A stretch of 64,000 bases of DNA, taken from NCBI RefSeq assembly GCF_013315695.1, contig NZ_CP054353.1. One strand, given 5' to 3'. Below are positions 4,357 through 33,473 of the stretch, one piece after another. Below the pieces are notes generated by a model. It was not told the DNA's origin and did not search any database. It saw nothing but the letters and a program-made list of their open reading frames with translations. The first letter of the stretch is position 1, and the number at the start of each line of letters is the position of its first letter. Origin of the DNA: Escherichia coli. Lineage in GTDB: Bacteria > Pseudomonadota > Gammaproteobacteria > Enterobacterales > Enterobacteriaceae. The position numbers were made by a program, and so were the translations under genes.

Positions 4357-4357
4357 T

Positions 4358-5188: not shown

Positions 5189-5293
5189 GGATATTTATCA
5201 GGATTTATCGGTTTCTGAGCCCTGGATATGTTTATCAGTTCCAGCCTGTTGCCTCAGGCTGCTAACAGGTCAATACAATCATGAGGATTATTT

Positions 5294-5566: not shown

Positions 5567-5876
5567 TTATTCCCGGTAGTTTTCCTCTGTAGGTTATCAA
5601 CACATCCTGCGCCTCTAAAATTACGGGGCGCTTTTCCGGCGACTGCTCATCCCCTTCACATAACCCGGCAGCAACATCCAGGAAGACCTGTCTGATGCTC
5701 CTTCTGGCTGCTGCCTCATAAAACTCCAGCGCGGCACCTTCAACACGGTCCAGCGAGATGTCCAGGTCAAAAATTTCACCGTCAAAGCGTTTTTTGTCCC
5801 GTAACGCTAAAGTTACCGTAACTTTATTCTCAAAATTGCGGATCCCTTTCACAATCAGTTCATAGTTTTGAGTCAT
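5532..5876 (-). CDS. hypothetical protein (114 aa) immediately downstream of the holin
   Basis: ATG 4 nt after the holin stop with GGGGAGAG as SD; soluble-looking product MTQNYELIVKGIRNFENKV...; no recognised domain. Confidence 0.55.
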   Translation of the reverse strand: MTQNYELIVKGIRNFENKVTVTLALRDKKRFDGEIFDLDISLDRVEGAALEFYEAAARRSIRQVFLDVAAGLCEGDEQSPEKRPVILEAQDVLITYRGKLPGIITGSLKSPPKW

Positions 5877-5880
5877 TGAA

Positions 5881-6096
5881 TTACTCTCCCCGTGCAGCCT
5901 TACGACGGTCCTCTCTGATTTTGAAATACAGGTTAGTCAGATATGTCAGCAGCCCAAACAGCAGACTCCCCAGCACGCCTATTGCCGCCCACTGAGACGG
6001 GGAAACCCTGTCCAGCAACTGCAGGAACCAGTAGCCCGTTCCCACCGCTGACGTGGTGTATGACACACCTGTTGTGATTTTTTCCATCTGGTACAT
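5881..6096 (-). CDS. class II pinholin, phage-21 S-like, dual start (71-aa and 68-aa forms)
   Basis: [13 protein letters not shown]... with two in-frame Met codons 3 codons apart (starts at 6096 and 6087); two TM segments; C-terminus ...[14 protein letters not shown]; ORF-track ORF extends to 6174. Confidence 0.8.
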
Positions 6097-6131
6097 ACCC
6101 CGTCTCCCGTTATCCGGAAGCTGACAACAAT

Positions 6132-6162
6132 AAAAAAAGCCACCAGTTAAGTACTGATGGCT
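6132..6162 (-). terminator. intrinsic terminator between esterase and holin
   Basis: On the minus strand, a 10-bp stem (one mismatch) followed by TTTTTTTATT. Confidence 0.45.
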
Positions 6163-6246
6163 CTGATAACTCATGCAGGCATCTCAGACGACCCACTGAC
6201 ACTACCGGTGAGTTTAACGATACCTTCCATTTGGCTGGCTCACTTT

Positions 6247-8100
6247 TTATGATGATGCCGGTGCATTTATCTCCAGCACCAGACTTTCTATCTCAACGCC
6301 ATACGCTGCATTTTTGGTAATATCCGTCAGCGTCAGCGCATTCAGCCCCAGTGTCAGACTGTCTTTTATGACCTGGAATGCCGGGCCAGCCACTCCATTC
6401 AGTTTCGGAGTAACCGTGGCACTGCCGGCGGTGAACACCAGCTCCAGCGTCTGCCAGTCGTTACTGTAATTCCCGAACTCGCCCAACTTTGTGTTTCCTG
6501 CTTTCTTGTGATGCATCAGATTCAGTTTGCCGTCTGTGGTCTGGGTGAAGAACGACATCAGGAACGGGTTACCAGTCCCGGTCATCGCCACGACGTCAGG
6601 TAACGCTACATCGGTATACAGATAAATTCCCAGACCGAACTGGTTGTTGGTCAGTGCGCCTGACAGTCGAAACTTACAGCTCAGTCTGCCACCCCGTGTC
6701 AGCAGGGAGACTGCGTCATCCACCGGGCGCGTCAGGGACCAGGCTTTATTGCTCTGCTTGGTGATCTTAAATACACCATCTGACAACTGAATTCCGCCAT
6801 TCTTAATGCTCCAGCCCTGCGCAGCAGCGTCTCCGGCTGTCGGCAACAGGGAGATTGTGCGTATGGATGCATCTTCAGACGGCCCCGATGGCGTGTCGCC
6901 GCCGGGCGAGGGTTTGATTTCCGGTGCCTTACCACTAATGAAGGCTAAGGTGCGACCGGCTACGTTCAGAATAGCAGTTGCCATACGATCGGGAATAATG
7001 CCACGACGCGCCCATGAGCTGAAATGCGTCGGGCGATTTGATGATACCCAGTTTTTGTTCGTTCGGGATGCCGAACCGTAATAACCAGACCCGGCAATAT
7101 CAGGATCTTCTGACGGGTTGTTTGTCGGTGTATTAACTCCGCTACCATCGGTCATAAAGGGAACAAAATAAATCTGCTGGGATTCTTTACCTTTATATGC
7201 ACCATATACCACTTCATATTGCGTACCGTGTTCTTGTTTCCACGCGTATGTCGTGTCGCCACAAATCCAGGGGACTGATGCCGGACTTCCACCGTGACAC
7301 TGCGCCGCCAGCCCGGCAAGGTCAGCACGGAACTGCTGTACCATTGCAAGAAATGCTGCTGGCTGCTGGGCGTAACTGGCATTCGTCATATCGAATTCCC
7401 CCTGCATCCAGCATATCGCCAGCAAAACGTTTTTCGGGTTTTTCTGCAATGCTGCCTTCGTGCGGAAAAGCAGATCCTGATATAACGGCTTACCCACTCC
7501 CCAGCGAGCCGAATCCTGACTGGCTCCCGTGGACTCGCTGAATGTCCCCTCCGTGCCCTGGGTGAATGCCGAACCACCACGACAGCATGGTACCAGCAGG
7601 ATCCCCGCATTATTAGGGATATACGGAAGCAGTTTTTTGGCAATATGTAAGCCCTGTCCGACACAGCCGTACTGCCCTTTGCTCAGGTCAGCCCGGGGAT
7701 GGTTAATCGTACTCATATCCTGAACATCATGCAGACAATGGTCAGCAGGAATGATGTCGTTAAATACGCATACTTCACCACCGGGAGTCACTGTGTTACG
7801 ACGGGCCAGTTGCTTAATGCGCGGATGGGGCGCATCGTATGAATCCGGAAGCGGAAGCCCTTCACCGTAAGCCATGGCATTGGATTGCCCGGCCAGTACG
7901 ATGACGTAGTACCACTCCGGCTCAGTTGCACCACTGACGACCACATCACCTTCTGCTGCAATCGCCTGCATCAGGGTATAAGGGGTTATGGCCACCGGAC
8001 TACCAAACGGCTGCCAGCCCTCCTTCAGTTTTTGTGTCAGTCGTTTCGCAAGGTCTGACGGCGATGCCGCCCTGACCACGTCATAGTGTTTAAATGCCAT
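6247..8100 (-). CDS. prophage sialate O-acetylesterase-like SGNH hydrolase (NanS-p-like)
   Basis: 617-aa product; LAGQSNAMAYGEG block typical of SASA/SGNH esterases; GGGAGGA SD 5 nt upstream; position between tRNA genes and holin as in Stx-type lambdoid phages. Confidence 0.65.
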   Translation of the reverse strand: MAFKHYDVVRAASPSDLAKRLTQKLKEGWQPFGSPVAITPYTLMQAIAAEGDVVVSGATEPEWYYVIVLAGQSNAMAYGEGLPLPDSYDAPHPRIKQLARRNTVTPGGEVCVFNDIIPADHCLHDVQDMSTINHPRADLSKGQYGCVGQGLHIAKKLLPYIPNNAGILLVPCCRGGSAFTQGTEGTFSESTGASQDSARWGVGKPLYQDLLFRTKAALQKNPKNVLLAICWMQGEFDMTNASYAQQPAAFLAMVQQFRADLAGLAAQCHGGSPASVPWICGDTTYAWKQEHGTQYEVVYGAYKGKESQQIYFVPFMTDGSGVNTPTNNPSEDPDIAGSGYYGSASRTNKNWVSSNRPTHFSSWARRGIIPDRMATAILNVAGRTLAFISGKAPEIKPSPGGDTPSGPSEDASIRTISLLPTAGDAAAQGWSIKNGGIQLSDGVFKITKQSNKAWSLTRPVDDAVSLLTRGGRLSCKFRLSGALTNNQFGLGIYLYTDVALPDVVAMTGTGNPFLMSFFTQTTDGKLNLMHHKKAGNTKLGEFGNYSNDWQTLELVFTAGSATVTPKLNGVAGPAFQVIKDSLTLGLNALTLTDITKNAAYGVEIESLVLEINAPASS

Positions 8101-8294
8101 GAATCCTCCCGGGCGGGATAATGTTGTGAGTCAGATAAGGAGCAGGCTGAAGTCCGGAAGTTACAGGACAATGGCAGAAGGGAGACTACAGCCCGCAATT
8201 CGAAAAAGACCGCGCAGTTGCGCAGAGTGATTACTATGGGGTATTATTCGCCAGCTGAAATATTACTTCACGTTTTATTGTTTATTCCTTGCCG

Positions 8295-8322
8295 CCCGCG
8301 TCTCCCAGCGCGGGCTTTTTTT
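8295..8322 (+). terminator. plus-strand intrinsic terminator
   Basis: CCCGCG-loop-CGCGGG hairpin followed by a T7 run. Confidence 0.4.
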
Positions 8323-8325
8323 GTC

Positions 8326-8562
8326 CATAAGAAAGCCCCTCCGGAGAGGGGCTAAAGCCGCGTATCTGTATCATCATGCACATGGTGCCGGGTGCCTCCC
8401 GGTGAGTTCAGCCCGGTGCCACTAAACCCGCGTCATTCTCGTTTTGATAATCAGAGATTATACCGTCACCAGTCGCCCCTCCGCTCAGGGGGATTCACCA
8501 TGCGAAATTTTTTTAACAAATGCCCAGTCTGACAGGCAACTGTCAACTTACTGAATTGTGAG
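8326..8562. repeat. direct repeat copy A (about 237 bp) in the late operon
   Basis: Shares with copy B the blocks AAAGCCCCTCCGGAGAGGGGCT, CATGGTGCCGGGTGCCTCCCGGTGA, GCCCCTCCGC-CAGGGGGATTCACCATGC, TTTTAACAAA and CTGAATTGTGAG. Confidence 0.6.
8335..8352 (-). terminator. hairpin GCCCCTC-CGGA-GAGGGGC with downstream U-rich tract on the minus strand (repeat A)
   Basis: Perfect 7-bp GC stem; in minus orientation followed by TTTCTT. Confidence 0.45.
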
Positions 8563-8812
8563 CAACATAGCATTTAACGGGGAACCTGTTTTCTGCAGTA
8601 AAAAGGCCCACCGGAGCGGATGGGCCTGGAAGGATAGCGGTCATGTGATGCCGGTTTCCCGGTAACTCAGCACCGGTATCTGAGTCAACGTTTTCTCTAC
8701 TGGGTCATTTCCGATACGCCCTGCCTGCTGACAGGCTTTCATCACATCTGAAAATATAGCACCCTGACTGATACTGTAGTACCTAAGGTTCCAGAAACTG
8801 TGATGTATCCGG

Positions 8813-9038
8813 CACAGAAAAGCCCCTCCGGAGAGGGGCTGGAGAGTGGCGCTATGTGCCATTGCATGGTGCCGGGTGCCTCCCGGTGAATTCAGTACCA
8901 GCACCTGAATCCGCGATTATCCCATATACCTACTCGCTGATTGCCCCTCCGCACAGGGGGATTCACCATGCCAGTTTCTTTTAACAAACTCCCCGCAAAC
9001 CAGACAACAGTCAACCGCCTGAATTGTGAGACATTTAA
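8813..9038. repeat. direct repeat copy B
   Basis: Imperfect copy of repeat A about 480 bp away. Confidence 0.6.
8822..8839 (-). terminator. hairpin GCCCCTC-CGGA-GAGGGGC with downstream U-rich tract on the minus strand (repeat B)
   Basis: Same hairpin as copy A; in minus orientation followed by TTTTCT. Confidence 0.45.
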
Positions 9039-9074
9039 AAAAAGCCCGCAAAAGCGAGCCAGGGAAAATAAGTG

Positions 9075-9151
9075 TGGCGCGTTGTACTGGATTCGAACCA
9101 GTGACCGATTGCTTAGAAGGCAATTGCTCTGTCCGGCTGAGCTAACAACGC
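9075..9151 (-). tRNA. tRNA-Arg (anticodon UCU)
   Basis: Manual fold of the reverse complement: acceptor GCGTTGT/ACAACGC, D-arm GCTC/GAGC, anticodon stem ATTGC/GCAAT with loop CTTCTAA, T-arm ACTGG-TTCGAAT-CCAGT, discriminator G, CCA encoded. Confidence 0.8.
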
Positions 9152-9164
9152 AGGATACAGATAA

Positions 9165-9241
9165 TGGACCGCCTTCGGGGACCCGAACTCCGCGCAACCA
9201 GCTTCGAAAGCTGGCGCTCTTTCCTGATGAGCTAATGGCGG
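9165..9241 (-). tRNA. tRNA-like gene, Arg-type (anticodon UCG by manual fold), possibly degenerate
   Basis: D-arm TAGCTCATCAGGAAAGAGC, anticodon stem CCAGC/GCTGG with loop TTTCGAA, CCA encoded; one mismatch in the acceptor stem and one in the T stem; T-loop TTCGGGT is non-consensus. Confidence 0.5.
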
Positions 9242-9248
9242 TATGTGA

Positions 9249-9324
9249 TGGTGGCCCTTGCTGGATTTGAACCAGCGACCTGGCGATTATGAGTCGCTCG
9301 CTCTCACCACTGAGCTAAAGGGCC
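9249..9324 (-). tRNA. tRNA with CAU anticodon, ileX-like (tRNA-Ile2/lysidine type; could be Met)
   Basis: Acceptor GGCCCTT/AAGGGCC perfect, anticodon loop CTCATAA, T-arm GCTGG-TTCAAAT-CCAGC, discriminator A, CCA encoded; closely resembles E. coli ileX from memory. Confidence 0.8.
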
Positions 9325-9373
9325 GGGAGCAGAATAATAATGGTGCGTAATTAATTCTGCAATCTCATCCGTT

Positions 9374-10423
9374 TCAAACGATTAAATCCTGAACTTCCCT
9401 GACTGTCTGCTCAAAACGTCCGGTCTCCAGTTCAACGCCAATCGCACGACGCCCAAGCGCCAGTGCCGCTTTTACCGTTGAACCTGAGCCCATAAAAAAA
9501 TCTGCAACCAGGTCACCCGGACGACTGCTTGCGCTGATTATCTGCTGCAGCATTTCTGCCGGTTTTTCGCACGGATGTTTCCCGGGATAGAACTGCACCG
9601 GTTTATGTGTCCACACATCCGTGTACGGCACCTGCGCCGTCACACCAAAATACCGCCGCAGATGCTTATATTCACTCTGCAGCTCCACATACTGCCGGTT
9701 CAGTGACGTATACGTATCCACCAGCTGGTGGTGGGGCTTTTCCAGTTCACCGCGCTGATGTTTCTCTTCTGCCACCCGGGCAAACAGCGACTGTAATTTC
9801 AGATAATCGCTTTCGTTCGGTAGCTGCCACTGACTGGCACTGAACCAGTGCGACACCATGTTTTTCTTTCCTGTGGCATCTGCAATCTGTTTTGCCGTTA
9901 TCCCCAGGGCAGCGCGCGCATCACGAAAGTAAGAAATCAGCGGGGCCATCACATGCTGTTTCAGTGCACTGCCCTTCGCCGCATACCCGGCATCTTTCGG
10001 ACGATACGGCCCCTGATAATGTTCCGCGAACAGAATGCGCTCTGTGGCGGGGAAATACGCCCGCAGGCTTTCCTTGTTGCATCCGTTCCAGCGTCCGGAC
10101 GGCTTCGCCCAGATAATATGGTTCAGCACACTGAAGCGTTCACGCATCATGATTTCGATATCAGATGCCAGGCGATGACCACAGAACAGGTAAAGACTTC
10201 CGACAGGTTTCAGCACCCGCCAGAACTGCGCCAGACACTGGTCCAGCCACTTCAGGTAATCATCGTCGCCCTTCCACTGGTTATCCCAGCCCTCAGGCTT
10301 CACTTTAAAGTACGGCGGGTCCGTGACTATCAGGTCAACAGAATTTTCGGGTAACGACCGGATAAATTCCAGGCAGTCGGCGTTGATTAACTCACAACTG
10401 GATATTTTTACAGTATTAAGCAT
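9374..10423 (-). CDS. orphan DNA methyltransferase (beta-class N6-adenine/N4-cytosine type)
   Basis: 349-aa product with catalytic DPPY motif near the N-terminus (LIVTDPPYF) and AdoMet motif FFMGSGST near the C-terminus; no adjacent restriction endonuclease gene. Confidence 0.8.
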   Translation of the reverse strand: MLNTVKISSCELINADCLEFIRSLPENSVDLIVTDPPYFKVKPEGWDNQWKGDDDYLKWLDQCLAQFWRVLKPVGSLYLFCGHRLASDIEIMMRERFSVLNHIIWAKPSGRWNGCNKESLRAYFPATERILFAEHYQGPYRPKDAGYAAKGSALKQHVMAPLISYFRDARAALGITAKQIADATGKKNMVSHWFSASQWQLPNESDYLKLQSLFARVAEEKHQRGELEKPHHQLVDTYTSLNRQYVELQSEYKHLRRYFGVTAQVPYTDVWTHKPVQFYPGKHPCEKPAEMLQQIISASSRPGDLVADFFMGSGSTVKAALALGRRAIGVELETGRFEQTVREVQDLIV

Positions 10424-10561
10424 GGATCATTAAGCCTGTCTCTGATAGGCTCATTCTGCTTTTGCGCAAAGCAGTGGGCCTGAGGTTTGCTTGTGAACCC
10501 AACGCATGAGCAGATGGCTGGTGGGTGCCCCTAACACCCACCAGCCGCCCATTTACCACAA

Positions 10562-10587
10562 ATAAAAAAGCCTTCAGGACTGAAGGC
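10562..10587 (-). terminator. intrinsic terminator after the 65-aa ORF
   Basis: Minus-strand hairpin GCCTTCAG-TC-CTGAAGGC followed by TTTTTTATTT; stem overlaps the last codons of the upstream ORF. Confidence 0.55.
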
Positions 10588-10771
10588 GTCTGTAACAACC
10601 GAACTGATAGTCTGCCAGACCCGCCATAACCAGCTGGGTCAGTATTAACTGGCAGCGTTCGCGTGAAAGGTAAGTATTCTGCGCTATCTCCCCGACTGTC
10701 GCCGGTTCGGTAACGCTTAATTCATTAAACACCACTCTGGCGGTTTCTGTCATATCCTGCTGTTTTAGCAT
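10574..10771 (-). CDS. small winged-helix-like protein (65 aa)
   Basis: ATG at 10771 preceded by AAGGAAAAAG; product MLKQQDMTETARVVFNELSVTEPATVGEIAQNTYLSRERCQLILTQLVMAGLADY...; ORF-track ORF extends to 10858. Confidence 0.45.
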   Translation of the reverse strand: MLKQQDMTETARVVFNELSVTEPATVGEIAQNTYLSRERCQLILTQLVMAGLADYQFGCYRRLQS

Positions 10772-10902
10772 GTCTTTTTCCTTTTTCCGGTTAACGTGAC
10801 ATACCAATAACTCTTGTCGAAAAAGCCAGCAAGCTGAAAGACCCGTATTCGCAACCACCAGCGTGTTTACTGTACTGACGCGATTTTGGGCATAAAAAAA
10901 AA

Positions 10903-10925
10903 CCGCCTGACGGCAGTTTTTTTTC
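10903..10925 (-). terminator. bidirectional intrinsic terminator just downstream of Q (tR'-like)
   Basis: Short GC hairpin CUGCC-GUCA-GGCGG flanked by A8 and T9 runs. Confidence 0.5.
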
Positions 10926-10929
10926 TTAC

Positions 10930-10985
10930 TTTGCCATCGCGTACAAAATCGGCAAAATATCAGATTTATATGAAACGTACGCTAT
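10930..10985 (-). promoter_or_regulatory. candidate late promoter PR' region
   Basis: Minus-strand TATAAA hexamer about 20 nt after the Q stop with weak TCAATT 17 nt upstream; position analogous to lambda PR'; not verified. Confidence 0.25.
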
Positions 10986-11675
10986 TTAATTGACTTTTGC
11001 AATATCTCGTCGTGAAAAAGTCGCTTTTTGTTGCGCTCTTATTTTCACGGTGCAAATCACAGATTCTCTATCGAGACTCTTAAAAATATCGCACATCTCA
11101 CGCCAGTAGTTCGCATAATTATGGCTCCAGTTATCAGGCTTAACTCCACACAGTCTGGCAAGCTCCTGTCTCTGGTAGACCTCACACCCGGTAATCCATC
11201 CTCTGACATCCTGTGCCGCCAGCCAGATCAACTTCTTCACGCGCTCCTGCGTTTTCCCTGCAATTTTTCTGGTGCCGTACCGGGTTTTAAATTCATTCCA
11301 CACCCACTGCGTTATCGCGATCTGATATTCCCAACAAATACTCCCGCTGTAACACCACAACAACCAGGCTTTATGATGTTCTTCAAGAGACAGAACAGCC
11401 CGCCGCCACGATGATGTCGAAAACTCAACCGGACTGACGAGAGGAATTGACACCCCCTTCGCCAGCGATTGCTTTCCCGGGATTGGTGGATTATCCCGCG
11501 TTATCATTTTTCCAGTCACTTCATCGCGGTACCGGATTTTTTTACGCCTGTAACGCCCTGTATCAAACATGGCATTCTCCTGCCAGGCCTCAAGCTGCCC
11601 TTTTGTTGATCCACTCAAATCGGCGGTGGCAATCATGAGTTGCTCACGAACAAACTGTAAATACTGGTTATTCAT
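10986..11675 (-). CDS. putative late-gene antiterminator Q
   Basis: 229-aa ORF in the canonical position (after rusA, before the terminator-rich late operon); Cys-rich central region; the family assignment is by position and my recall only. Confidence 0.55.
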   Translation of the reverse strand: MNNQYLQFVREQLMIATADLSGSTKGQLEAWQENAMFDTGRYRRKKIRYRDEVTGKMITRDNPPIPGKQSLAKGVSIPLVSPVEFSTSSWRRAVLSLEEHHKAWLLWCYSGSICWEYQIAITQWVWNEFKTRYGTRKIAGKTQERVKKLIWLAAQDVRGWITGCEVYQRQELARLCGVKPDNWSHNYANYWREMCDIFKSLDRESVICTVKIRAQQKATFSRRDIAKVN

Positions 11676-12037
11676 GCGTACTCCAGTTCTGTGATTTTTA
11701 TCCCCAACCGCCCACCAGGAACAAGCTGACCGCGCACAATATTAATTTCATCAAACTGCTCGTCGTCTATGAGCAGCCCCGCATGCGTCAGTACATCCAG
11801 TGGTGCCTTCAGGATATTGTCCAGGTCACGACGGCGCTTATCCGGTGGCTCTGCAATAATTTCTATTGCCGGCCTTCCGGACAGGTTTAATTTCAGTTGC
11901 TGCTGGCGAACAATAAGCGCCACATCACGGCGATAACGCTCACCGACTTTTGATACAAAATATGTGCTGCCACGACGTCGCCAGTAAGTGTTCACCGTTG
12001 GCGGGTAAGGCAAAACAAATTCTATGCGTTCAGTCAT
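11672..12037 (-). CDS. rusA: RusA-type Holliday junction resolvase
   Basis: 121-aa product MTERIEFVLPYPPTVNTYWRRRG...DKRRRDLDNILKAPLDVLTHAGLLIDDEQ... matches the RusA pattern. Confidence 0.8.
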   Translation of the reverse strand: MTERIEFVLPYPPTVNTYWRRRGSTYFVSKVGERYRRDVALIVRQQQLKLNLSGRPAIEIIAEPPDKRRRDLDNILKAPLDVLTHAGLLIDDEQFDEINIVRGQLVPGGRLGIKITELEYA

Positions 12038-13093
12038 TTATGCTTTCCACTTCAGAACACCCGAATTTCTCGCGTGCATTAAAAAACGAATCAGCAACAA
12101 CAGCTGGCTGCCGTGTTTTTCTTCAAAATCTTTTACCCCGGCGTGTAGTTCGCTATGGCATTTACGGCACAGCGGAATAACAAACAAATCATCAGCCTTT
12201 GTTCCCATCCCTCCCAGTCCATGACCAATGATGTGATGCGGATCATCTGCCTGATTGCCACACGTCATGCATTTCTGCGTTTTTACCCAACGCGTGTATA
12301 CAGGCATCTCTTCCCGTTGTGATTTCTGGCGCTGGAGATACTGAGCCGGTGACTCCGGATCAACGGCAATGCTGACCACCGTCTTTTCCTGTGGCGGGTT
12401 TTGCTGGTGGGCGTGAGGCAGCGGCGCAAGATTTTTTGTGCGCTGCTTCAGTATGCTGGTGGCGGTCTGCTCTCCCGGTACGATGTCGCTTTCACGGTAC
12501 ATTGAGCGGATTTTTTCCGCACGCAACCCCAGCGAACGACGTAATACCGCTTCCGGTAGCGCGTCCGCCACCTGATTGCGGACCGCCCACCAGGATAATT
12601 CAGCCAGCGATAATTCCCGTTCCTGCGAGCCATTCATTGCATGGCGTATGACGTCAATCATCCATGCAGACAGGTTTTGGTGAGCAAGTTGCCCGAGTGA
12701 TTCGGAGGTCTGGTCGCGCAGCTGGTTGTCGCAGTGCCAGCACAACACCATTGCGCCGGTACCATAACGGTGAATGACGGTTTCACTGTGGTGATAATCG
12801 CCGTGTGGCCACTGGCAGGATTTAACATGGCGCAGTAACCAGTCAGACAATGCGCCAGCGCCACCAGCAGCACGAATCACTCGTTCGTCGCTGAAAAATG
12901 GCAGTAATGATTTATCCTCCGCCAGCGGCTGGCGAACGGCAGGAACGACCCCGGACGGCAGATTACGCATGCTTTTCGGTTCCGGCTCCACCAGTACCCG
13001 GGTATTGTGGAATACCGGCATGGATTCACGGCCCGGCTTAACGATCACCAGCCCGAGTTCCGGTACCAGAACAGGTCGAAGTAATACCCGCAC
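12038..13093 (-). CDS. DUF968-type phage protein (YdfU-like) with C-terminal HNH/zinc-finger-like motif
   Basis: 351-aa product; C-terminal CMTCGNQADDPHHIIGHG...CRKCHSELH motif. Confidence 0.6.
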   Translation of the reverse strand: MRVLLRPVLVPELGLVIVKPGRESMPVFHNTRVLVEPEPKSMRNLPSGVVPAVRQPLAEDKSLLPFFSDERVIRAAGGAGALSDWLLRHVKSCQWPHGDYHHSETVIHRYGTGAMVLCWHCDNQLRDQTSESLGQLAHQNLSAWMIDVIRHAMNGSQERELSLAELSWWAVRNQVADALPEAVLRRSLGLRAEKIRSMYRESDIVPGEQTATSILKQRTKNLAPLPHAHQQNPPQEKTVVSIAVDPESPAQYLQRQKSQREEMPVYTRWVKTQKCMTCGNQADDPHHIIGHGLGGMGTKADDLFVIPLCRKCHSELHAGVKDFEEKHGSQLLLLIRFLMHARNSGVLKWKA

Positions 13094-13094
13094 G

Positions 13095-13367
13095 TTACCT
13101 CCAGATGCGTTGCTGGAATGTGCGGGACGGACGCGGTGGGCGTTCAGAGTAAGGAAGCCTGACGGAGATTATCCAGTGACGATAATCGAGGCTGAGGGCT
13201 TTCTTAATCTCGTATCCGCGTCTGCGGTAGTTATGAATTAGCCATTCGGCCTGTTCTTCAGTACATGGTGGGTGTTGGTACCAGTCGGTTTTAAATGCGT
13301 GTGAACGCCGCCCATGCCGGATGGCAAGGTCGGTATCAGAATTGTGAAATTTGGTTTTGTGCGCCAT
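13095..13367 (-). CDS. hypothetical phage protein (90 aa), position of Qin rem
   Basis: ORF between hok and the DUF968 gene; no recognised domain. Confidence 0.4.
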   Translation of the reverse strand: MAHKTKFHNSDTDLAIRHGRRSHAFKTDWYQHPPCTEEQAEWLIHNYRRRGYEIKKALSLDYRHWIISVRLPYSERPPRPSRTFQQRIWR

Positions 13368-13432
13368 CTGTTTTCTCTGCTGGCGCAGCAGGTGTCAGGT
13401 GTTCAGGCTGACGTGCGAATTGTAAACCAGAA

Positions 13433-13466
13433 TGCCAGAAAAAAACAAAACCCGCCGAAGCGGGTT
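13433..13466 (-). terminator. intrinsic terminator downstream of hok
   Basis: Minus-strand hairpin AACCCGC-UUCG-GCGGGUU followed by a U-rich tract. Confidence 0.6.
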
Positions 13467-13534
13467 AAGTGCGGGTGCGTTGAGGATGCCTGACACATCA
13501 GAGGTGGCGAGGGATTTCTCCCCCGCCAGGTCTC

Positions 13535-13690
13535 TTACTCCTCAGGTTCGTAAGCTGTGAAGACAGCGACCTCCGTCTGGCCGGTTCGGAGTCGTACCTC
13601 GCAGAGGTCTTTCCTCGTTACCAGTGCCGTCACTATGACGGTTAAACAGATGACGATCAGGGCGATTAACATCGCCTTTTGCTGCTTCAT
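13535..13690 (-). CDS. hok: Hok/Gef-family type I toxin (HokD-like)
   Basis: 51-aa product MKQQKAMLIALIVICLTVIVTALVTRKDLCEVRLRTGQTEVAVFTAYEPEE; the ORF-track ORF carries a 19-codon in-frame upstream extension. Confidence 0.85.
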   Translation of the reverse strand: MKQQKAMLIALIVICLTVIVTALVTRKDLCEVRLRTGQTEVAVFTAYEPEE

Positions 13691-13927
13691 AGCCTGCTTC
13701 CCCTTGCCTTTCGGCACGTAAGAGGCTAACCTACATTTGTGAGACATAGATTGGGCCTCAGATTAATGTTAAGCGTCTTGCAGGACGCGAAATGTTAACT
13801 GGGGCTTTTCTCTATCTGCCTTTCAGTGTTCATGCCTGAGACAGATAGCCTCAAGCACCCGCAGCCATTCTACTTAACTCACGTCACCTCGCCAATATGA
13901 AATCAATCAGAAAGGTGATCCATAAAA

Positions 13928-14614
13928 TCACTCCTTCTCTTCTTTTCCGTAGTGGAGTTGGCCAATTTTGATAAGAGGGCGTCCCTGAGATTTGCGGTGT
14001 AGATTGGTATCGCGCAGAGAATACACACAGCCACAATATTCCTGCTGATAGAATTTTTCGCGCTTGCTGATTTCAATCATACGGGACGAGCCGCCCTGCT
14101 TGCGCCAGTTATAATCCCAGTACACCATACCCGGATAATGCGCAACAGCTCGCCGCCCACACTCGTTAACCTGCTGCATATTTTTCCAGCGTGAAATGCC
14201 CAGTGAACTGCTGATCACACTGAAACCATTTTCAGCAGCGTACAACGCTGTCCGCTCAAAACGCATGTCAAAACACATGGTACAACGGATCCCCCTCTCA
14301 GGCTCCCATTCCATTCCTTTGGCACGTTCAAACCAGTTGTCGGTGTCGTAATCAGCATCGATAAACGGCACGCCGTGTTGTTCAGCAAAGCGAATATTTT
14401 CATCCTTACGAATTAAATACTCTTTCTGAGGATGAATGTTCGGGTTGTAGAAAAAGATGGTGTAGTCGATTCCCGAGGCCTGAAGCGCCTCCATCACTTC
14501 ACCGGAACATGGAGCACAGCAAGAGTGCAGTAGTAGTTTGTTTGCCCCGTTTGGGAGCTCCAATTTAGGCCGTTTGAAATCAGCAATAGTCATAAATATT
14601 TTTATTGGGGTCAT
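13928..14614 (-). CDS. QueH-like (DUF208) epoxyqueuosine reductase homologue
   Basis: 228-aa product with N-terminal [11 protein letters not shown] motif and further Cys motifs (CTMCF, YCGCVY) characteristic of the QueH/DUF208 family; true start may be the Met 7 codons downstream. Confidence 0.6.
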
Positions 14615-14767
14615 GAAAATAGCACAGAGTGTAGCATCAGAGCAGGTCTATCGGGAATATATGTCTAAATCTGGTAATATCTGGTTTTGACGCAAAGCGG
14701 ACAACCACGCTGGCTCTACCCTGCGCCATGAAAATGTCAATTCACATCTGAACTAATGCTCTTTAAT

Positions 14768-15208
14768 CTAGTAACGTCTAAAATACCTAACATTTCCTTG
14801 ATAAAATGCCAGTACACGCTGCATAGCTTCGCTCTTCCGGCACTCGCGACAGATTATATTCAGGCGCCTGTCGTAGCGGCGTATTTCGCCGTCTGGTAAC
14901 GACCAGATAAGGTCCGGATCAACCACTGCAGGTTTCTTCACCTTTGCCCTTGAGAGTTTTTTGCGAGCATTTTGCCAGTCCTTACGCGCCTGTTCAGACG
15001 GGAATAACCCGTAACCAGAGTTGTATACATCGCCACTGGCAACCAGCTCTCTGGCGAGAACACTCATCAGATATCTTGTCGCACCTGTCCTGGCTTCCAG
15101 TTGCCGCAACGTCTCGCGACCGCTCAGACGTACAAGTTCAACAACCTGCCCTTTAATTTTTTCCCGCTCTTCTTGTGTAAATACTTTTGCCATAAGCGCC
15201 TCCGGCAA
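14768..15208 (-). CDS. hypothetical phage protein (146 aa)
   Basis: ORF in the nin-like region; C-terminal CRECRK motif; no confident domain call. Confidence 0.5.
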   Translation of the reverse strand: MPEALMAKVFTQEEREKIKGQVVELVRLSGRETLRQLEARTGATRYLMSVLARELVASGDVYNSGYGLFPSEQARKDWQNARKKLSRAKVKKPAVVDPDLIWSLPDGEIRRYDRRLNIICRECRKSEAMQRVLAFYQGNVRYFRRY

Positions 15209-15979
15209 TCACTTTTCCGATACAACACGGCGGGAAGAATCAGTAATCTGTCGAACAATATCCCGGTGCTTGTTCAGCTCCCGCAGCGCGGCGCAGACTC
15301 GCTCCCACTTCTGAACATCACTTTTCGCCCTGCGCAGCGCCAGGTTTGCCCTGCGAAGGGACGGAAAAATCAGCTCATCTGCTTGCGTTTCGGTAAACGA
15401 TGGCAACGGCTGCACAATGTCCGCCACAGTTTCTGTTTTAATTTCTTCCTGTGTTGCGGCTTCCCGGACTGGTAACGCAGCACCTGCTGGCTGAGGAAAG
15501 GCCTTACCATCACTTTCCGTTACCAGCGCGGCTTTCGGCTCTGCTGGTAAATTATCGCCCGGCATGCAGTAACGAAATTTACCGTTCTGATTAACGCGTG
15601 CCAGCCGCCCCGTTGCGGTTACCACCGCCAGCGTGGAAGCAACCTTGCGAGTACTGACACCGAACTTACCCGCCAGTTCCTCACACGTTTTAGCCCCATC
15701 CTGACCGATAAACTCAATCATCATGTCTGCGGTAACTTTTTGTTCGACCTCCCCGGTCAGCATATCCTGTGCTTCAGATTTTACTGGCCGCTCTTCGGTT
15801 ACCCGGGATTCACCTTCGCCAGCCAGAAACCAGGTGTGACCAGTTTTATCAACGACGCCTTTTCTTTTGAGTTCCCACAGCTCGTTGACAGCCTCTTCAC
15901 GACTGATTCCAAGGCGAGCTGCCACCACATGTGAAGAGGCTTTTTTCAGTGCTTTCAGTGCGTCAGATACGGTTTCCAT
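15209..15979 (-). CDS. hypothetical phage protein (256 aa) with N-terminal winged-helix-like repeats
   Basis: ORF directly downstream of the DnaC-like gene; two similar N-terminal segments (SHVVAARLGISREEAVNELWELKRKG / KTCEELAGKFGVSTRKVASTLAVV). Confidence 0.5.
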   Translation of the reverse strand: METVSDALKALKKASSHVVAARLGISREEAVNELWELKRKGVVDKTGHTWFLAGEGESRVTEERPVKSEAQDMLTGEVEQKVTADMMIEFIGQDGAKTCEELAGKFGVSTRKVASTLAVVTATGRLARVNQNGKFRYCMPGDNLPAEPKAALVTESDGKAFPQPAGAALPVREAATQEEIKTETVADIVQPLPSFTETQADELIFPSLRRANLALRRAKSDVQKWERVCAALRELNKHRDIVRQITDSSRRVVSEK

Positions 15980-16000
15980 TAAAATTTCCTCCGGACAAAA

Positions 16001-16747
16001 TTACTTCACAACCCTCATATTGCTGACATTTGGACGCCAGCTATCCCAGTTAAACGTCACCCATCGACCACCGTTCATGGTCATGCGGTCCATAATCCTC
16101 TCACCAAGAAGCGTACTCATTGCGGCATGATTCAGGTTTGTTAACATCCCGACACTGCACAGTGATGCTGTCCGGCGATCAATTATCTGGTGCAATACCA
16201 CCTGCTCGTTTTTCGTCTCCCGCTGAACGCCTATTTCATCCAGGACCAGCAAATCAACCCCGCAAAGCTCCTGTAAAAATTTTTCCCCGGATTTGCCGTT
16301 GTCGTAGCTGTCATGCAACACGCTCATGACGTCAGACACGGTGACGATAATCACGCTGCGCCCCTTCACCATCAGCCGGTTGCCCATCGCCGCTGCAAGG
16401 TGATTTTTCCCGGTGCCGGTTTTACCGCTGAACACAAAATTCGTGCACCCGGTCATCAGTTCGTCAGCTATGGATTTGGCCTGGCTCAGCGCGTATTTTT
16501 GCCCGTCGTTCTGCACCTGATAATTTGCAAACGAGCATTTGCTGTGCAGAGGCTGGATGCCCGAACGATTCAGGATTTTTTCCACCCGCAACTGGCGATT
16601 CTGGCGGTTAATCTCCTCGCTGCGTTTTCGTCCTTCAGCAAGTTGCCATTCCCGCCACTCCTCCACCGTCCGGTACGGTGGAACCGACCCCTGTGGTGCA
16701 AGTCTGCGAATACGTTCAAGACCCCCAACTGCCGCAATGTTTTTCAT
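16001..16747 (-). CDS. phage replication protein, DnaC-like helicase loader (YdaV-like)
   Basis: 248-aa product with Walker A GKTGTGKNHLAAAMG and Walker B LLVLDEIG. Confidence 0.85.
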   Translation of the reverse strand: MKNIAAVGGLERIRRLAPQGSVPPYRTVEEWREWQLAEGRKRSEEINRQNRQLRVEKILNRSGIQPLHSKCSFANYQVQNDGQKYALSQAKSIADELMTGCTNFVFSGKTGTGKNHLAAAMGNRLMVKGRSVIIVTVSDVMSVLHDSYDNGKSGEKFLQELCGVDLLVLDEIGVQRETKNEQVVLHQIIDRRTASLCSVGMLTNLNHAAMSTLLGERIMDRMTMNGGRWVTFNWDSWRPNVSNMRVVK

Positions 16748-16753
16748 GACACG

Positions 16754-17731
16754 TCACCCCCTGAATCCCGGCGGTATTTCAGTGTCCGGTTCAGAAATGT
16801 GATTCACGCAACGCTGCGCAGGCGAACGCCCCAGGCGGATAACCAGTTCATCCCATTTTTCCCGGAGTTTTGCCGGACTCATGATGTTTTTTACCCAGAA
16901 CGAATCCCGCTGGAGACGCCCAAACATTTCACAAATTTGTCTGTGAGTTCTGCCATCCAGCATCCGCATTGTGCGAACGTCATTGGCCCATGCTGTCCAG
17001 TTGGGTTCTTTCGGTCTAGTGATCTCGCCATCATAGCTGGCCGCCTGCTCGTAAAGACTCACGATTCGTCCCCAGATCCACTGTGCGCACACCAAATCTT
17101 CCTGACTTCCCCACTGGCGTTTTTTCGCACTGAACACAACCGCGTCAGGGTGTCGGGTTAAAAAATCCTGTTCAGCCGTCTGCGGGTCCGGTTGCGAAGC
17201 GTCCGGACAAGAAGATCTTTTATCTGACGGATCAGGTTTTAATACTGACGGATCGGGGTCAATCATCGCCCCCCTAATCGGCAGTTTTTTATCAACAGTT
17301 GATCCATCAAAATTTGACGGGTCAACCGTTGAGGGGTCAATATTTGACGGGTCAACTGTTAACGGGTCATTTTTTGCCGGGCTAATTTTTCTTTTCGGTT
17401 TATATGACTCACGCGCCGCCGCCGCAGCTGCTTCGAGTTTTTCCACATTAAGCCGATAGATATTGCTTACATTACGCCCACCGACCTTACGCTCTTCCTT
17501 CGTCAGCCAGCCCTCTTTCGCCAGTTCTGCAATAGCCGATTTCACTGTGGATTCACTTCTTGCACCGATCTGACGCCGGATAGTTTCAATGGCAGGCCAT
17601 GACACGCCCTCGTCATTGCTGTAGTCTGCAAGACGGGCCATAACCGCCACCCTGGATAAGATCATGCCGGTGAAGGCGCACCCTTCCCAGACAAGACCAT
17701 GAAGCTTGCTGCTCATAAAACCCCCGAACAC
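16754..17731 (-). CDS. phage replication initiator, O-like (YdaU-like)
   Basis: 325-aa product with N-terminal HTH-like region; central repeated peptide DPSNIDPSTVDPSNFDGSTVD encoded by DNA iterons; immediately upstream of the DnaC-like gene. Confidence 0.6.
   Translation of the reverse strand: MFGGFMSSKLHGLVWEGCAFTGMILSRVAVMARLADYSNDEGVSWPAIETIRRQIGARSESTVKSAIAELAKEGWLTKEERKVGGRNVSNIYRLNVEKLEAAAAAARESYKPKRKISPAKNDPLTVDPSNIDPSTVDPSNFDGSTVDKKLPIRGAMIDPDPSVLKPDPSDKRSSCPDASQPDPQTAEQDFLTRHPDAVVFSAKKRQWGSQEDLVCAQWIWGRIVSLYEQAASYDGEITRPKEPNWTAWANDVRTMRMLDGRTHRQICEMFGRLQRDSFWVKNIMSPAKLREKWDELVIRLGRSPAQRCVNHISEPDTEIPPGFRG
17220..17400. repeat. replication-origin-like iteron array inside the O-like gene
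   Basis: Repeated TGACGGGTCAA-type units (TTGACGGGTCAACCG, TTGACGGGTCAACTG, CTGACGGATCGGGGTCAAT, GTTGAGGGGTCAAT, GTTAACGGGTCA) followed by an AT-rich tract. Confidence 0.6.
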
Positions 17732-17738
17732 CGTGCTT

Positions 17739-18164
17739 TTAGTGCATCACCACAGCATTCCCTGCCGGGCCGCCGCGATTCATCTGGTCATACAAAACAA
17801 CCGCTGACGCAACAAAATCATCGACATCCTTCACCAGCCGATCCCTCCGTTCGACGATCTCACGGTAATATTCAGAACTGTGGCTGCGCATACGGGCCAC
17901 CAGCAAAGGCGGCATCGCCTTTTCGATCGCCGGTAACAGAGCCTGCATTTTTTCAACAGCATCAGGGGGGGCTTTCTCTACCCAGCGGAAAATTTTCTGG
18001 GTATTGCGAGCCAGGGCTTCCGGATGGCTGTCGTCATACAGTTCCGGGAACGTCATACCCAACTCAAAATAAGCCTGGGTTATTCCAGCTGCTGGAACTT
18101 TTTCGCCATCAGGACGCGCCCAGGCATTCATCGCCATGCGGATGTGTTCATGCTTGATTTTCAT
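17739..18164 (-). CDS. YdaT-like CII-type regulator
   Basis: 141-aa product MKIKHEHIRMAMNAWARPDGEKVPAAG...; position after the cro-like gene; assignment from my recall of Rac YdaT. Confidence 0.6.
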   Translation of the reverse strand: MKIKHEHIRMAMNAWARPDGEKVPAAGITQAYFELGMTFPELYDDSHPEALARNTQKIFRWVEKAPPDAVEKMQALLPAIEKAMPPLLVARMRSHSSEYYREIVERRDRLVKDVDDFVASAVVLYDQMNRGGPAGNAVVMH

Positions 18165-18429
18165 GAATCAAGCTCCTAGAAAGTGGTTGTGTTAACGTTT
18201 TGGTATCTTCCAGCTCGGGCCAAATATTCATCCAATCAAAAGGCCTTAGTTGCTGACGTGTAACTTCACCATTACTGGCTCGCTCAATAAGGACACATAA
18301 CGATGCCCCTAACACTTGACCTTTACTCAATGCCTTTCTTAGATAACCGATGCTGGTACCACACTCGCATGCAAACATACGCTGTTCATCTGACGAAAGA
18401 GAATTGAGAAATATTCTTAATTCTTCCAT
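18148..18429 (-). CDS. Cro-like HTH regulator (YdaS-like)
   Basis: 93-aa ORF divergent from the repressor gene; first gene of the minus-strand early operon. Confidence 0.55.
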   Translation of the reverse strand: MEELRIFLNSLSSDEQRMFACECGTSIGYLRKALSKGQVLGASLCVLIERASNGEVTRQQLRPFDWMNIWPELEDTKTLTQPLSRSLIHENQA

Positions 18430-18458
18430 AGCTACTCCTTAGTAAACACAGCAAAGAA

Positions 18459-18536
18459 TACCCACAGGTAAACAAAAGCCAATACCCACAGGTTGTTTAC
18501 CTTGCGGTAATCGCATCTATTATTTACCTATGGACA
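18459..18536. promoter_or_regulatory. OR-like operator cluster between cro-like and repressor genes
   Basis: Three TACC-N4-GGTA-type sites: TACCCACAGGTA (18459-18470), TACCCACAGGTT (18483-18494), TACCTATGGACA (18525-18536, overlapping the repressor ATG). Confidence 0.55.
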
Positions 18537-18949
18537 AATATGAATTTAGACGACAGCAACTCATCAAAATTCGTGATGAGAAATGCGATGGTAAAGCGGT
18601 TAACGTGGCCAGAAAGATCGGGCGCGAGCCTTCTTATGTATCAAGAATGTTGTACCCAGAGGGGAAAAAGGGAAAAAAACGGATCGCTGATGATATGGTG
18701 GAGATTATCGAAGAGTCCTTTGGGTTACCCCGGGGATGGATGGATGGTATCGTTTCATCATCAACGAACACAGCCTCCAGTTATGAAACAAGGGTTCTAA
18801 CGCCACGACAACGTATTTTTTTAGATCTCTTAGACGAACTGCCAGAAAGTGAAGCGGATAAATTATTAAAAACTCTTGAAGAGAAAAAACAGTATTACAA
18901 TATGATCTACGAAGAAATCCGTAAAAAGAAAGCACAAAACGCATCATAG
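18530..18949 (+). CDS. prophage repressor (CI-like, HTH)
   Basis: 139-aa ORF divergent from the cro-like gene; N-terminal HTH-like segment AVNVARKIGREPSYVSRMLY. Confidence 0.55.
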   Translation: MDKYEFRRQQLIKIRDEKCDGKAVNVARKIGREPSYVSRMLYPEGKKGKKRIADDMVEIIEESFGLPRGWMDGIVSSSTNTASSYETRVLTPRQRIFLDLLDELPESEADKLLKTLEEKKQYYNMIYEEIRKKKAQNAS

Positions 18950-18990
18950 CTCACCAAACAACTAGTCACCAGTTAAGACACCGCAAAATT

Positions 18991-19027
18991 TACCCATGGG
19001 TATTTACTTTTTAAATACCTATGGGTA
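18991..19027. promoter_or_regulatory. OL-like operator pair downstream of the repressor gene
   Basis: Perfect palindrome TACCCATGGGTA (18991-19002) and TACCTATGGGTA (19016-19027), same TACC-N4-GGTA architecture as the OR sites. Confidence 0.55.
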
Positions 19028-19213
19028 TCCTTCTTTTCATACCAACCCACCCCGCCCCACAGAATGCAGGGCAATACTTCGAGTTACCAGGCAGTGGTCA
19101 GGGGTTAAGTAGCCAGCCCGAGGCGTAAGAACATGACGGCAGGGTTCAACTTTAATAACTATGCAGCAGGTTTTTGTTCCGCTACCCCGGCGTTAAGGGG
19201 AAATGAGGTCAGC

Positions 19214-19366
19214 ATGGATACTATCGATCTTGGCAACAGCGAATCTCTGGTATGTGGCGTGTTCCCCAACCAGGACGGTACGTTCACCGCGATGACGTAT
19301 ACCAGAAGCAAAACGTTTAAAACTGAAGCTGGCGCGCGTCGCTGGTTAACCAGAAACACTGACTGA
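19214..19366 (+). CDS. small early-left protein (50 aa)
   Basis: ATG with GAGG 5 nt upstream; C-terminal Arg-rich stretch; ORF-track ORF starts earlier at 19133. Confidence 0.4.
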   Translation: MDTIDLGNSESLVCGVFPNQDGTFTAMTYTRSKTFKTEAGARRWLTRNTD

Positions 19367-19377
19367 TGAGGTTGACG

Positions 19378-19779
19378 ATGGAATTTAAAGATTTACCAGT
19401 ACCATTCCAGGAAATGGCATCGAATGTGGTTCGCTCTCAACTGGCGACTCTTGACCTGAGTACCGTAGAAAAGGAAACCATCGATACTATATCCGGTAAC
19501 GTGCGTCGTGCCTTTATAGGTCTGTATGAAGAGAAGCGCCTATTCGGCGGACAGAATTCGCCTGAAAACAAGAATCAAGCAAATGATGAGAAGCTGAAAC
19601 ACATTATCGCCTTACTTTTGGAAGACGCAAAACGTCTACAGCAACTGGAACCAAATGCAGGCACAGAGGCCCGCATTTGGATTGCCATGAAATCACTCAA
19701 ATGTGAAAGCAGTGATTATTTCAAAACAACAATTAAAACTACTCAACTTTCGGGAGAGCTACTGAAGAAATTGCCATAA
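19378..19779 (+). CDS. hypothetical early-left protein (133 aa)
   Basis: ATG with GAGG upstream, 12 nt after the previous stop; no recognised domain. Confidence 0.45.
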   Translation: MEFKDLPVPFQEMASNVVRSQLATLDLSTVEKETIDTISGNVRRAFIGLYEEKRLFGGQNSPENKNQANDEKLKHIIALLLEDAKRLQQLEPNAGTEARIWIAMKSLKCESSDYFKTTIKTTQLSGELLKKLP

Positions 19780-20017
19780 GAGCATGGTCTTTCTCTTGTT
19801 CTGCAAGATGAGCATTAATACCTGGTATGGTTTTTTCAAATTTATCTATCTGTTGAATAACAACTTCGCGGTATACGTTTGTTTTTGTACCACCAAGCGC
19901 AGCCGTTAATGCAGAAAGCATATTTAGTATCATATCAGTGCGATATGAAAGAATCCTGATAGCTTCATCTTGTTCTTCAATAATAGATTGCAGGGCCTCA
20001 ATTTGCTTTTTATCCAT
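19739..20017 (-). CDS. hypothetical coiled-coil-like protein (92 aa), antisense to the early-left operon
   Basis: ATG preceded by perfect AGGAGG at 5-nt spacing; overlaps the 3' end of the convergent 133-aa gene by 41 bp; ORF-track ORF extends to 20056. Confidence 0.5.
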   Translation of the reverse strand: MDKKQIEALQSIIEEQDEAIRILSYRTDMILNMLSALTAALGGTKTNVYREVVIQQIDKFEKTIPGINAHLAEQEKDHALMAISSVALPKVE

Positions 20018-20588
20018 TTCACCCTCCTGAGGGTTGGTAATTAAGGAGTTCTCCACGGGTCAGGTGGAGTGCGTGCGCCGGACACGGGTGAGCATCCGGC
20101 ACTGACAGCTTACTGAAAGGATATGTCCCTGAAAAGTCAGGGCATAACGCGAAAGCGCACGGCGAAATTGGTCTCTCTGTACGGTGTCGTTAAATTTAGT
20201 TCGACCGTGCGCTTCCGGTTGTGGCACTCCGCGAAATGGCGCGGCGGTAAGTATGGCTGGGGTTTCCTCCATTGCTCCAGAAAATGCACCGGGTTGTCAG
20301 GTTGACCATACGCTTAAGTGACAACCCCGCTACAACGCCCTCTGTTATCAATTTTCTGGTGACATTTGGCGGTATCAGTTTTACTCCGTGACTGCTCTGC
20401 CGCCCTTTTTAAAGTGAATTTTGTGATGCGGTGAATGCGGCTATGCGCACGCGGAACAGTTAAAGCAGTAAGGCGGTATTTTACGGGCGTAACGAGCATC
20501 AACTAACCCGGCGTTAATTGTTAACTGGTTAACGTCACCTGGAGGCACCAGGCACTGCATCACAAAATTCATTGTTGAGGACGCGATA

Positions 20589-20777
20589 ATGGAAACGTTA
20601 TTACCAAACGTTAATACGTCTGAAGGTTGTTTTGATATTGGTGTTCTGCTCAGTAACCGGGAGTTTACTGAAGATGCCATTAATATGAGGAAATATGAGC
20701 CTTATCTGCTCAATGATAATTCCATACTTTCCCGAATTGCTCTTCTTGAACTTGGTATTTTCGGAGAACGTCAATGA
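20589..20777 (+). CDS. hypothetical small protein (62 aa)
   Basis: AT-rich ORF with GAGGA upstream; stop overlaps next start (ATGA). Confidence 0.4.
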   Translation: METLLPNVNTSEGCFDIGVLLSNREFTEDAINMRKYEPYLLNDNSILSRIALLELGIFGERQ

Positions 20778-20962
20778 CTTCAGCATTTGCACTGATGATG
20801 ACGGTTTTTCTTATAACGGGTGAATCACAGAATGTGATTACCGGAATTTATGCAAGTAAAGAATCCTGCCTCCAGGCAAGAGACGAGCAAAAAATTTCTG
20901 GTGAATGCCTCCCGCTAAAAAAAGTATCGCTGTACCTGAATAACGAAACACCGGCTGGATAA
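20774..20962 (+). CDS. hypothetical small protein (62 aa) with N-terminal hydrophobic segment
   Basis: Translationally coupled to the preceding ORF; N-terminus MTSAFALMMTVFLITG is signal/TM-like. Confidence 0.4.
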   Translation: MTSAFALMMTVFLITGESQNVITGIYASKESCLQARDEQKISGECLPLKKVSLYLNNETPAG

Positions 20963-21057
20963 CCCTCCAGCCATATTAACACCATACCAACGGATTAAAA
21001 ATGCCAGCAATGGCAGGGATTCGTTCACCCTGAAATCTGTAATGAGGTTAAAACAAA

Positions 21058-23529: not shown

Positions 23530-23593
23530 TGTTCAACCCCGGTCGTTGCCCACCAGCTATAGTGGCGGCGACCATGATTAGCGAACGACGCCC

Positions 23594-29479: not shown

Positions 29480-29587
29480 ATTTTAAACTCATGATTAGTA
29501 AGAGAGACTACCATGATTTATTTAACCAAAATGTCATTTTGTGATATTCTGCATAAAAGTTCATTATTCTAGAGATAGAGCATTAAT

Positions 29588-32550: not shown

Positions 32551-33473
<923 letters not shown>

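Follow-up and report, generated by a model that had tools for sequence, protein, structure and literature searches.

An intact queH gene on lambdoid prophages of Escherichia coli: a probable cobalamin-independent back-up of QueG

Escherichia coli does not synthesise cobalamin de novo and relies on BtuB-mediated uptake. The final step of its queuosine (Q) synthesis, carried out by QueG (YjeS), depends on cobalamin according to a passage of PMC4646009 that cites Frey 1988. Members of the QueH family are described as performing the same reduction by iron-sulfur chemistry (PMC5372724; PDB titles). The predicted reaction and substrate of QueG and QueH are the same (oQ34-tRNA to Q34-tRNA), whereas their folds and cofactors are unrelated, QueG being a core enzyme that uses cobalamin together with a [4Fe-4S] cluster and QueH an accessory one. 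It is common for one genome to encode paired cobamide-dependent and cobamide-independent enzymes (PMC6461909). MetH and MetE likewise serve the same step within a genome, MetE without the cobamide requirement. The QueH family and its reaction are already known, and RefSeq names the gene described here; it is the prophage setting that has been under-noticed. Full-text literature searches returned no discussion of QueH on E. coli prophages (the 'QueH' matched in a BL21 paper is part of an author's name, Quehenberger), and a 2019 study surveying viruses for 7-deazaguanine genes reported no homologues of QueA, QueG or QueH (PMC6884629).

The window, by which we mean the whole 64,000-nt stretch of DNA that was analysed, covers the E. 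coli chromosome from trpB/trpA to narK, and its first 25 kb are 99.9% identical to strain MSB1_4I. A first-pass annotation of the window had assigned one of its genes to the QueH (DUF208) family on account of an N-terminal HxCCAPCS motif and further Cys clusters. The motif (as HSCCAPCS) and the Cys pairs are present in the ORF, and Pfam-A returned a single full-length QueH domain (PF02677, formerly DUF208; E=1.2e-65, model positions 1-174 of 175, residues 27-201 of the 228-aa ORF) and not a different Fe-S family. A phmmer search against PDB sequences matched the Thermotoga maritima enzyme (T. maritima QueH, 7lc5, E=7.8e-22). Identical DNA is named 'epoxyqueuosine reductase QueH' by RefSeq (WP_000150294.1), with the CDS at the same coordinates in the 99.9% identical genome NZ_LR898874.1. 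Since no NCBIfam model matches the protein, the RefSeq name must stem from another rule. In PHROGs v4 the protein matches phrog_3217 (E=1.9e-138), a family labelled 'unknown function'. The GC and GC3 content of the gene is not anomalous.

The extent of the gene needed a small correction. The ORF from 14614 to 13928 on the minus strand is real and encodes 228 aa, including the motif and Cys pairs mentioned above, but the gene itself likely begins at the ATG at 14593, giving 221 aa. This start is preferred because the orthologues are 217-222 aa long, because RefSeq uses the same start, and because the ATG at 14614 is replaced by ATT in L012, the E. coli copy that diverges most.

In order to compare the protein with its family at the residue level, we aligned it with 48 members down to 35% identity. 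In this 49-sequence alignment all 16 invariant and all 14 near-invariant family columns are kept in the prophage protein, the invariant residues being C25, C26, C29, N52, Y59, R62, E99, R103, C104, C107, R111, K137, Q184, C187, G188 and C189; conservation was also checked in a broader set of 81 sequences. The Cys pattern of the family's metal site (CCxPC, CxxC and CGC) is complete. The position of T. maritima Asp13, a residue mutated by the depositors in PDB entry 9DCO, is occupied by Cys in the prophage protein and in 67 of 72 family representatives, which makes the crystallised T. maritima enzyme the exception.

The AlphaFold2 model of the protein (pLDDT 95.4, pTM 0.91) overlaps closely with the T. 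maritima structures. Foldseek aligned this predicted model to 7lc5 over 180 columns with E=7e-15, a target-normalised TM score of 0.93 and an rmsd of 1.2 A, and to the queuosine complex 9deu with a TM score of 0.92; taken together, the two structures gave TM scores of 0.92-0.93 and rmsd values of 1.2-1.9 A. The best structural match outside QueH had E=8.5e-05, and the next ones, at about 1e-4, were enzymes of the PP-loop ATPase fold such as TtuA and LarE. Domain, predicted fold, conserved Cys set, invariant residues and length class are thus shared with T. maritima QueH (7LC5, 7LC7, 9DEU). The prophage protein is, however, only 30% identical to it, rides on a prophage and coexists with QueG. 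These results confirm that the prophage gene is a canonical, intact queH.

The proposed prophage location also held: annotation of the corresponding stretch of NZ_LR898874.1 and PHROG matches place queH within a lambdoid gene set that runs from int to the lysis genes (Table 1). The order of genes is int, xis, exo, dicB/DicF, repressor/cro, O-like and DnaC-like replication genes, DUF1627, the Ren-like DUF977 gene, queH and hokD, followed by HNH/DUF968, rusA, Q, a DNA methyltransferase gene, three tRNAs, an esterase gene, the lysis genes and then IS1. The DUF977 gene, which is the upstream neighbour of queH, is the last gene of the replication module. The hok gene named as the other neighbour proved real, with its sok RNA. 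Neither annotation nor PHROG detected any remaining head or tail genes; being cut by IS1 and without these genes, the prophage is defective. None of the three prophage tRNAs is a queuosine substrate, and the tRNA-Tyr gene pair at 55993-56195 belongs to the chromosome (tyrTV).

Table 1. Coordinates of queH and of the features around it in the window
Feature	Position	Strand	Basis or remarks
Defective lambdoid prophage	3675..24980 (about)		Integrated beside ompW; annotation of the NZ_LR898874.1 stretch, PHROG, tRNAs, DicF
Prophage tRNA cluster	9075-9324	-	Arg(UCU), Arg(UCG) and a CAU-anticodon tRNA (Met by ARAGORN, Ile by RefSeq)
Terminator-like hairpin, hok/sok locus	13466-13449	-	Generic scan
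hok/sok type I toxin-antitoxin locus	13535..13860	-	Directly downstream of queH
hokD CDS	13535-13690	-	RefSeq; a mok-like ORF reaches 13747
sok RNA	13685-13860	-	Rfam RF01794, 120.5 bits
Promoter-like site, hok/sok locus	13895-13867	-	Generic scan
queH cassette	13926..14685		Present/absent unit between the DUF977 region and hok/sok
queH CDS	13928..14593	-	221 aa + stop; ORF list, Pfam, RefSeq
Candidate extended -10 element TGcTACACT (TGCTACACT)	14628..14636	-	34 nt upstream of the ATG at 14593; putative function
DUF977 / Ren-like exclusion protein	14768..15208	-	PHROG 142 (Ren-like), E=5e-46; DUF977 in RefSeq

The limits of the inserted segment were determined with junction probes. In genomes without queH, homology on the hok side stops at 13925 and homology on the DUF977 side resumes at about 14685-14688, which leaves a cassette of about 760 bp made up of the ORF and about 92 bp upstream of it. 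The junction between queH and hok is present in 942 of the 994 E. coli genomes that carry queH and that between DUF977 and queH in 882 of them. Related prophages have other cargo or nothing at this site, indicating a discrete insert between conserved phage modules. The first-pass annotation had pointed out that relBE takes the equivalent position in Qin, and the order in K-12 is indeed relB-relE-hokD. The relBE-hokD arrangement shares with the queH cassette its position, its present-or-absent behaviour and its hok neighbour, but here the cargo is a tRNA-modification enzyme and not a toxin-antitoxin or defence gene. In strain E32 a HEPN-domain gene fills the slot. A KwaB-like Kiwa pair comes after queH in strain E597, and strain GF47 has a DUF1971 gene downstream. 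Between the Ren-like DUF977 gene and hok/sok, E. coli lambdoid prophages have a general site for variable cargo.

Among 5426 complete E. coli genomes, 994 (18%) carry queH, and at least 80% of the gene is kept in 984 of these. The carriers have it on Rac-like, Qin-like and other lambdoid prophages and include strains B REL606, ATCC 11303, C and ATCC 8739. The gene is thus not rare, and its earlier description as an unexpected cargo was overstated, the more so as RefSeq already calls it QueH. That E. coli normally uses QueG was borne out, since queG was found as a core gene in 5425 of the 5426 genomes. Essentially every carrier of queH thus also has queG, and the typical pattern, in which QueH replaces QueG in genomes that lack it, is not the case in E. 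coli; this pattern does not define the family, and its absence concerns the role of the gene and not its assignment to QueH. An isolated 45-kb phage, HannyBb, has a 95% identical queH at the same position (L007, 6001-6687), annotated as hypothetical, and its homology to the window forms one block from 13922 to 14709. Both phrog_3217 and the hypothetical protein of HannyBb can be re-annotated as QueH. In IMG/VR at least 185 viral contigs encode relatives, the best 80 of the 185 all being identical to this E. coli variant, so that they inform on the variant itself and not on unrelated phages. A further apparent phage QueH, in 'Acinetobacter phage MD-2021a' (CAKLQH020000001.1, 328 kb), was rejected: the record is really an Acinetobacter chromosomal contig with soxR, tadA, cynX and other such genes, and matches to it should not count as viral.

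Outside E. coli, queH genes of Erwinia, Providencia, Proteus, Photorhabdus, Gibbsiella, Rahnella and Acinetobacter encode proteins with 78-86% amino acid identity to the prophage protein (84-86% for Providencia and Erwinia, 77.7% for Acinetobacter baumannii). These chromosomal genes have the same length as the prophage copy. The Erwinia and Providencia genes occupy stable non-phage neighbourhoods, as opposed to the prophage cassette seen here: in Erwinia queH lies between purL and glrK (L005/L006, 5345-6700), and in Providencia it lies beside tmcA. We compared the window with the Erwinia and Providencia loci using blastn, which identified no donor between them. DNA similarity is about 76% and confined to the ORF, and the capture is therefore not recent. 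In E. coli K-12 there is presumably no gene between purL and glrK. It would fit these observations if an ancestral chromosomal queH had been lost in the Escherichia lineage and then regained on mobile elements.

Closer relatives are found in other settings within Enterobacteriaceae. A queH about 90% identical to the prophage gene is present on a 257-kb Klebsiella plasmid (CP052534.1 and relatives, L018-L020), among transposases, a NACHT gene and an HD-domain gene (PF01966, PF13286). A chromosomal copy, also about 90% identical and named for Citrobacter koseri and other Enterobacteriaceae, adjoins genes resembling a yersiniabactin-type siderophore cluster. Because the 90-nt upstream regions of the plasmid copy and of the Enterobacteriaceae chromosomal copy (L021) are identical, these two suggest another mobile queH cassette. 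In Klebsiella aerogenes the chromosomal queH (L024/L025, 4387-6657), likewise about 90% identical, directly follows a gene of a metal-sensing repressor family (PF02583) and a nickel/cobalt efflux gene of the NicO family; Q-deficient E. coli are reported to show altered nickel and cobalt resistance (PMC9508795). Judged by this distribution, queH behaves as roaming accessory cargo in QueG-bearing Enterobacteriaceae.

The selection acting on queH was estimated from six E. coli prophage and phage copies by Nei-Gojobori counting with our own script. All six copies are intact. In 14 of the 15 pairs dN/dS lies between 0.02 and 0.09, with dS reaching 0.46; the outlier value of 0.26 is based on four differences. 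An intact queH persists even in defective prophages, namely that of the window and the Qin-like remnant of E. coli B. The pattern indicates that queH has been kept as a working protein through a long residence in phages, including prophages unable to grow lytically.

We then looked at the signals from which queH might be expressed. Alignment of the upstream regions revealed a candidate extended -10 element, whose exact sequence TGCTACACT has its single match in the window there. All six E. coli prophage and phage copies retain the core CTCTGATGC(T/C)ACAC, five of them reading TGCTACACT; in the sixth, L012, the core is retained although the sequence further upstream is unrelated, and the last T of the -10 is A. 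Elements of the TG-n-TAnAnT type occur 33-38 nt before the queH ATG in several other Enterobacterales contexts. At the equivalent distance the Erwinia chromosome reads TGCTACACT, the K. aerogenes chromosome TGCTACAGT, and both the Klebsiella plasmid and the Enterobacteriaceae chromosomal copy TGCTAAAAT, while Providencia has TATACT without the TG. Because the motif is conserved about 35 nt upstream of the gene across unrelated genomic contexts, we read TGcTAnAnT as suggesting an extended -10 promoter that travels with queH. The evidence for this candidate is the comparative alignment; its -35 is weak, and a generic sigma-70 scan returned no promoter upstream of queH on the coding strand. The generic scan also placed no terminator after queH or between it and the upstream replication genes, so that queH may simply belong to the phage early-right transcript. 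The ATG at 14593 lacks a recognisable Shine-Dalgarno sequence. An Rfam search of 13300-15000 at permissive thresholds found sok alone; neither a riboswitch for cobalamin or preQ1 nor any other credible RNA was seen upstream of queH.

Based on these findings, we propose, with a probability of roughly 0.7, that the gene encodes an active cobalamin-independent epoxyqueuosine reductase carried as a moron by lambdoid prophages, which would free Q synthesis in the lysogen from B12 and would probably be expressed from its own promoter. Such a moron would be a small, self-contained accessory gene carried between the replication and nin regions. The enzyme, with a [4Fe-4S] cluster and an adjacent iron, would reduce oQ to Q at position 34 of tRNA-Asp, tRNA-Asn, tRNA-His and tRNA-Tyr. 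Since QueG needs cobalamin and E. coli cannot make it de novo, prophage queH would let lysogens finish Q where B12 is scarce or its uptake is lost, much as MetE backs up MetH. The likeness to that pair has its limits, as MetE is chromosomal and B12-regulated, whereas prophage queH is mobile cargo without a detectable riboswitch. An extended -10 promoter of its own would let queH function when the prophage is repressed or defective. Enzyme activity in E. coli, activity of the promoter and B12 independence as the selective benefit are the predicted parts of this proposal. A fitness effect of Q versus oQ in E. coli is not established in the literature examined.

It could be argued that queH serves the lytic cycle instead, being expressed from the early-right operon after induction only and tuning the Q content of host tRNAs for late-gene translation, with no benefit to the lysogen. 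Its orientation is that of the replication genes and Q, between which it lies, nothing terminator-like stands between it and the DUF977 gene, and the isolated phage HannyBb carries it in the same position. Such a role is at odds with the intact, purifying-selected copies that persist in prophages past lytic growth and with the promoter-like element conserved alongside queH in non-phage contexts; moreover, the tRNAs that the prophage brings with it (Ile/Met-CAU, Arg and Arg) are not substrates for Q. We consider a purely lytic role unlikely. The same persistence bears on the suggestion that queH is a decaying passenger without current function. In favour of this, the prophage is defective and the gene duplicates a core host function, but the low dN/dS in nearly all pairs at considerable dS, the six intact copies and the 984 genomes that keep most of the gene make decay highly improbable. 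Phages also modify their DNA with 7-deazaguanines from the same pathway (PMC6884629), and an action of QueH on such a base in phage DNA, and not on tRNA, might be envisaged; the first-pass annotation had raised the possibility of a modified nucleobase in another context. Phage 7-deazaguanine clusters, with DpdA and preQ0 genes, do belong to the same metabolic pathway family as queH, but annotation and PHROG scans of the neighbouring proteins revealed no TGT/DpdA-family or preQ0 synthesis gene in the prophage, in agreement with the absence of a tgt/dpdA-like partner noted earlier. The 7-deazaguanine phages analysed in PMC6884629 are reported to have no QueA, QueG or QueH, and oQ in DNA is not described there. 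The prophage protein is a close orthologue of the ordinary chromosomal tRNA enzymes of Acinetobacter, Providencia and Erwinia, retains their conserved residues and is under purifying selection, so that a role on another nucleobase is unsupported and one in phage DNA barely credible.

A benefit in defence or counter-defence would leave the enzyme with its usual activity, the conversion of oQ to Q altering the sensitivity of tRNAs to anticodon nucleases or toxins. The company that queH keeps is suggestive of this: its slot is shared with relBE, a HEPN-domain protein, KwaB-like Kiwa genes and hok/sok, and on the Klebsiella plasmid its neighbours are NACHT and HD-domain genes and transposases. No PADLOC defence family matches the protein at E<=0.01, however, and a dN/dS of about 0.05 together with about 80% identity to chromosomal orthologues of Enterobacterales is unlike an arms-race gene. 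We found no reports of a difference in nuclease sensitivity between oQ and Q, and regard this role as improbable. Overall, action on phage DNA and decay are effectively excluded, while the lytic and defence roles are possible with low to moderate plausibility. Our preferred reading, the B12-independent back-up of QueG, could also be extended. As a form of lysogenic conversion that shifts host tRNA modification from oQ to Q at position 34 of four tRNAs in B12-poor conditions, which E. coli frequently encounters, queH might pay off beyond metabolic back-up through altered decoding of NAU/NAC codons or altered sensitivity to anticodon nucleases. This would explain why its slot is shared with toxin-antitoxin and defence cargo, and it would make QueH an enzyme that phages carry to modify host tRNAs in the service of conflict or virulence. 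The extension is speculative and, on balance, quite unlikely; to our knowledge, oQ and Q have no documented difference in decoding.

Nearly one fifth of complete E. coli genomes, including those of the laboratory strains B REL606, C and ATCC 8739, carry on a prophage a second predicted enzyme for the final queuosine step, one that does not need B12. If the enzyme is active as proposed, carrier strains would differ from K-12 in the modification of four tRNAs when cobalamin is absent, as in minimal media, and comparisons of Q-linked phenotypes in translation, stress and metal response could be confounded as a result. The gene would also be a clear example of host tRNA modification being spread by a temperate phage.

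A few other features of the region deserve mention. The interval from the prophage tRNA cluster to the esterase gene holds two tandem copies of the STnc100 sRNA family (8323-8532 and 8810-9000, minus strand; 165 and 136 bits), and the DicF antisense RNA is encoded at 20354-20405 on the plus strand, just upstream of dicB, as in Qin. The IS1 element (about 2977-3674) truncates the prophage and the adjoining DUF892 family gene at the yciE position, and all structural genes have been removed. A second, small phage remnant is located at about 29200-33600, between yciI and kch, and contains an SOS-peptidase pseudogene, an LTA-synthase family gene, a dinI-like gene, a tail-fibre fragment, IS3 and the isrC sRNA (32619-32741).
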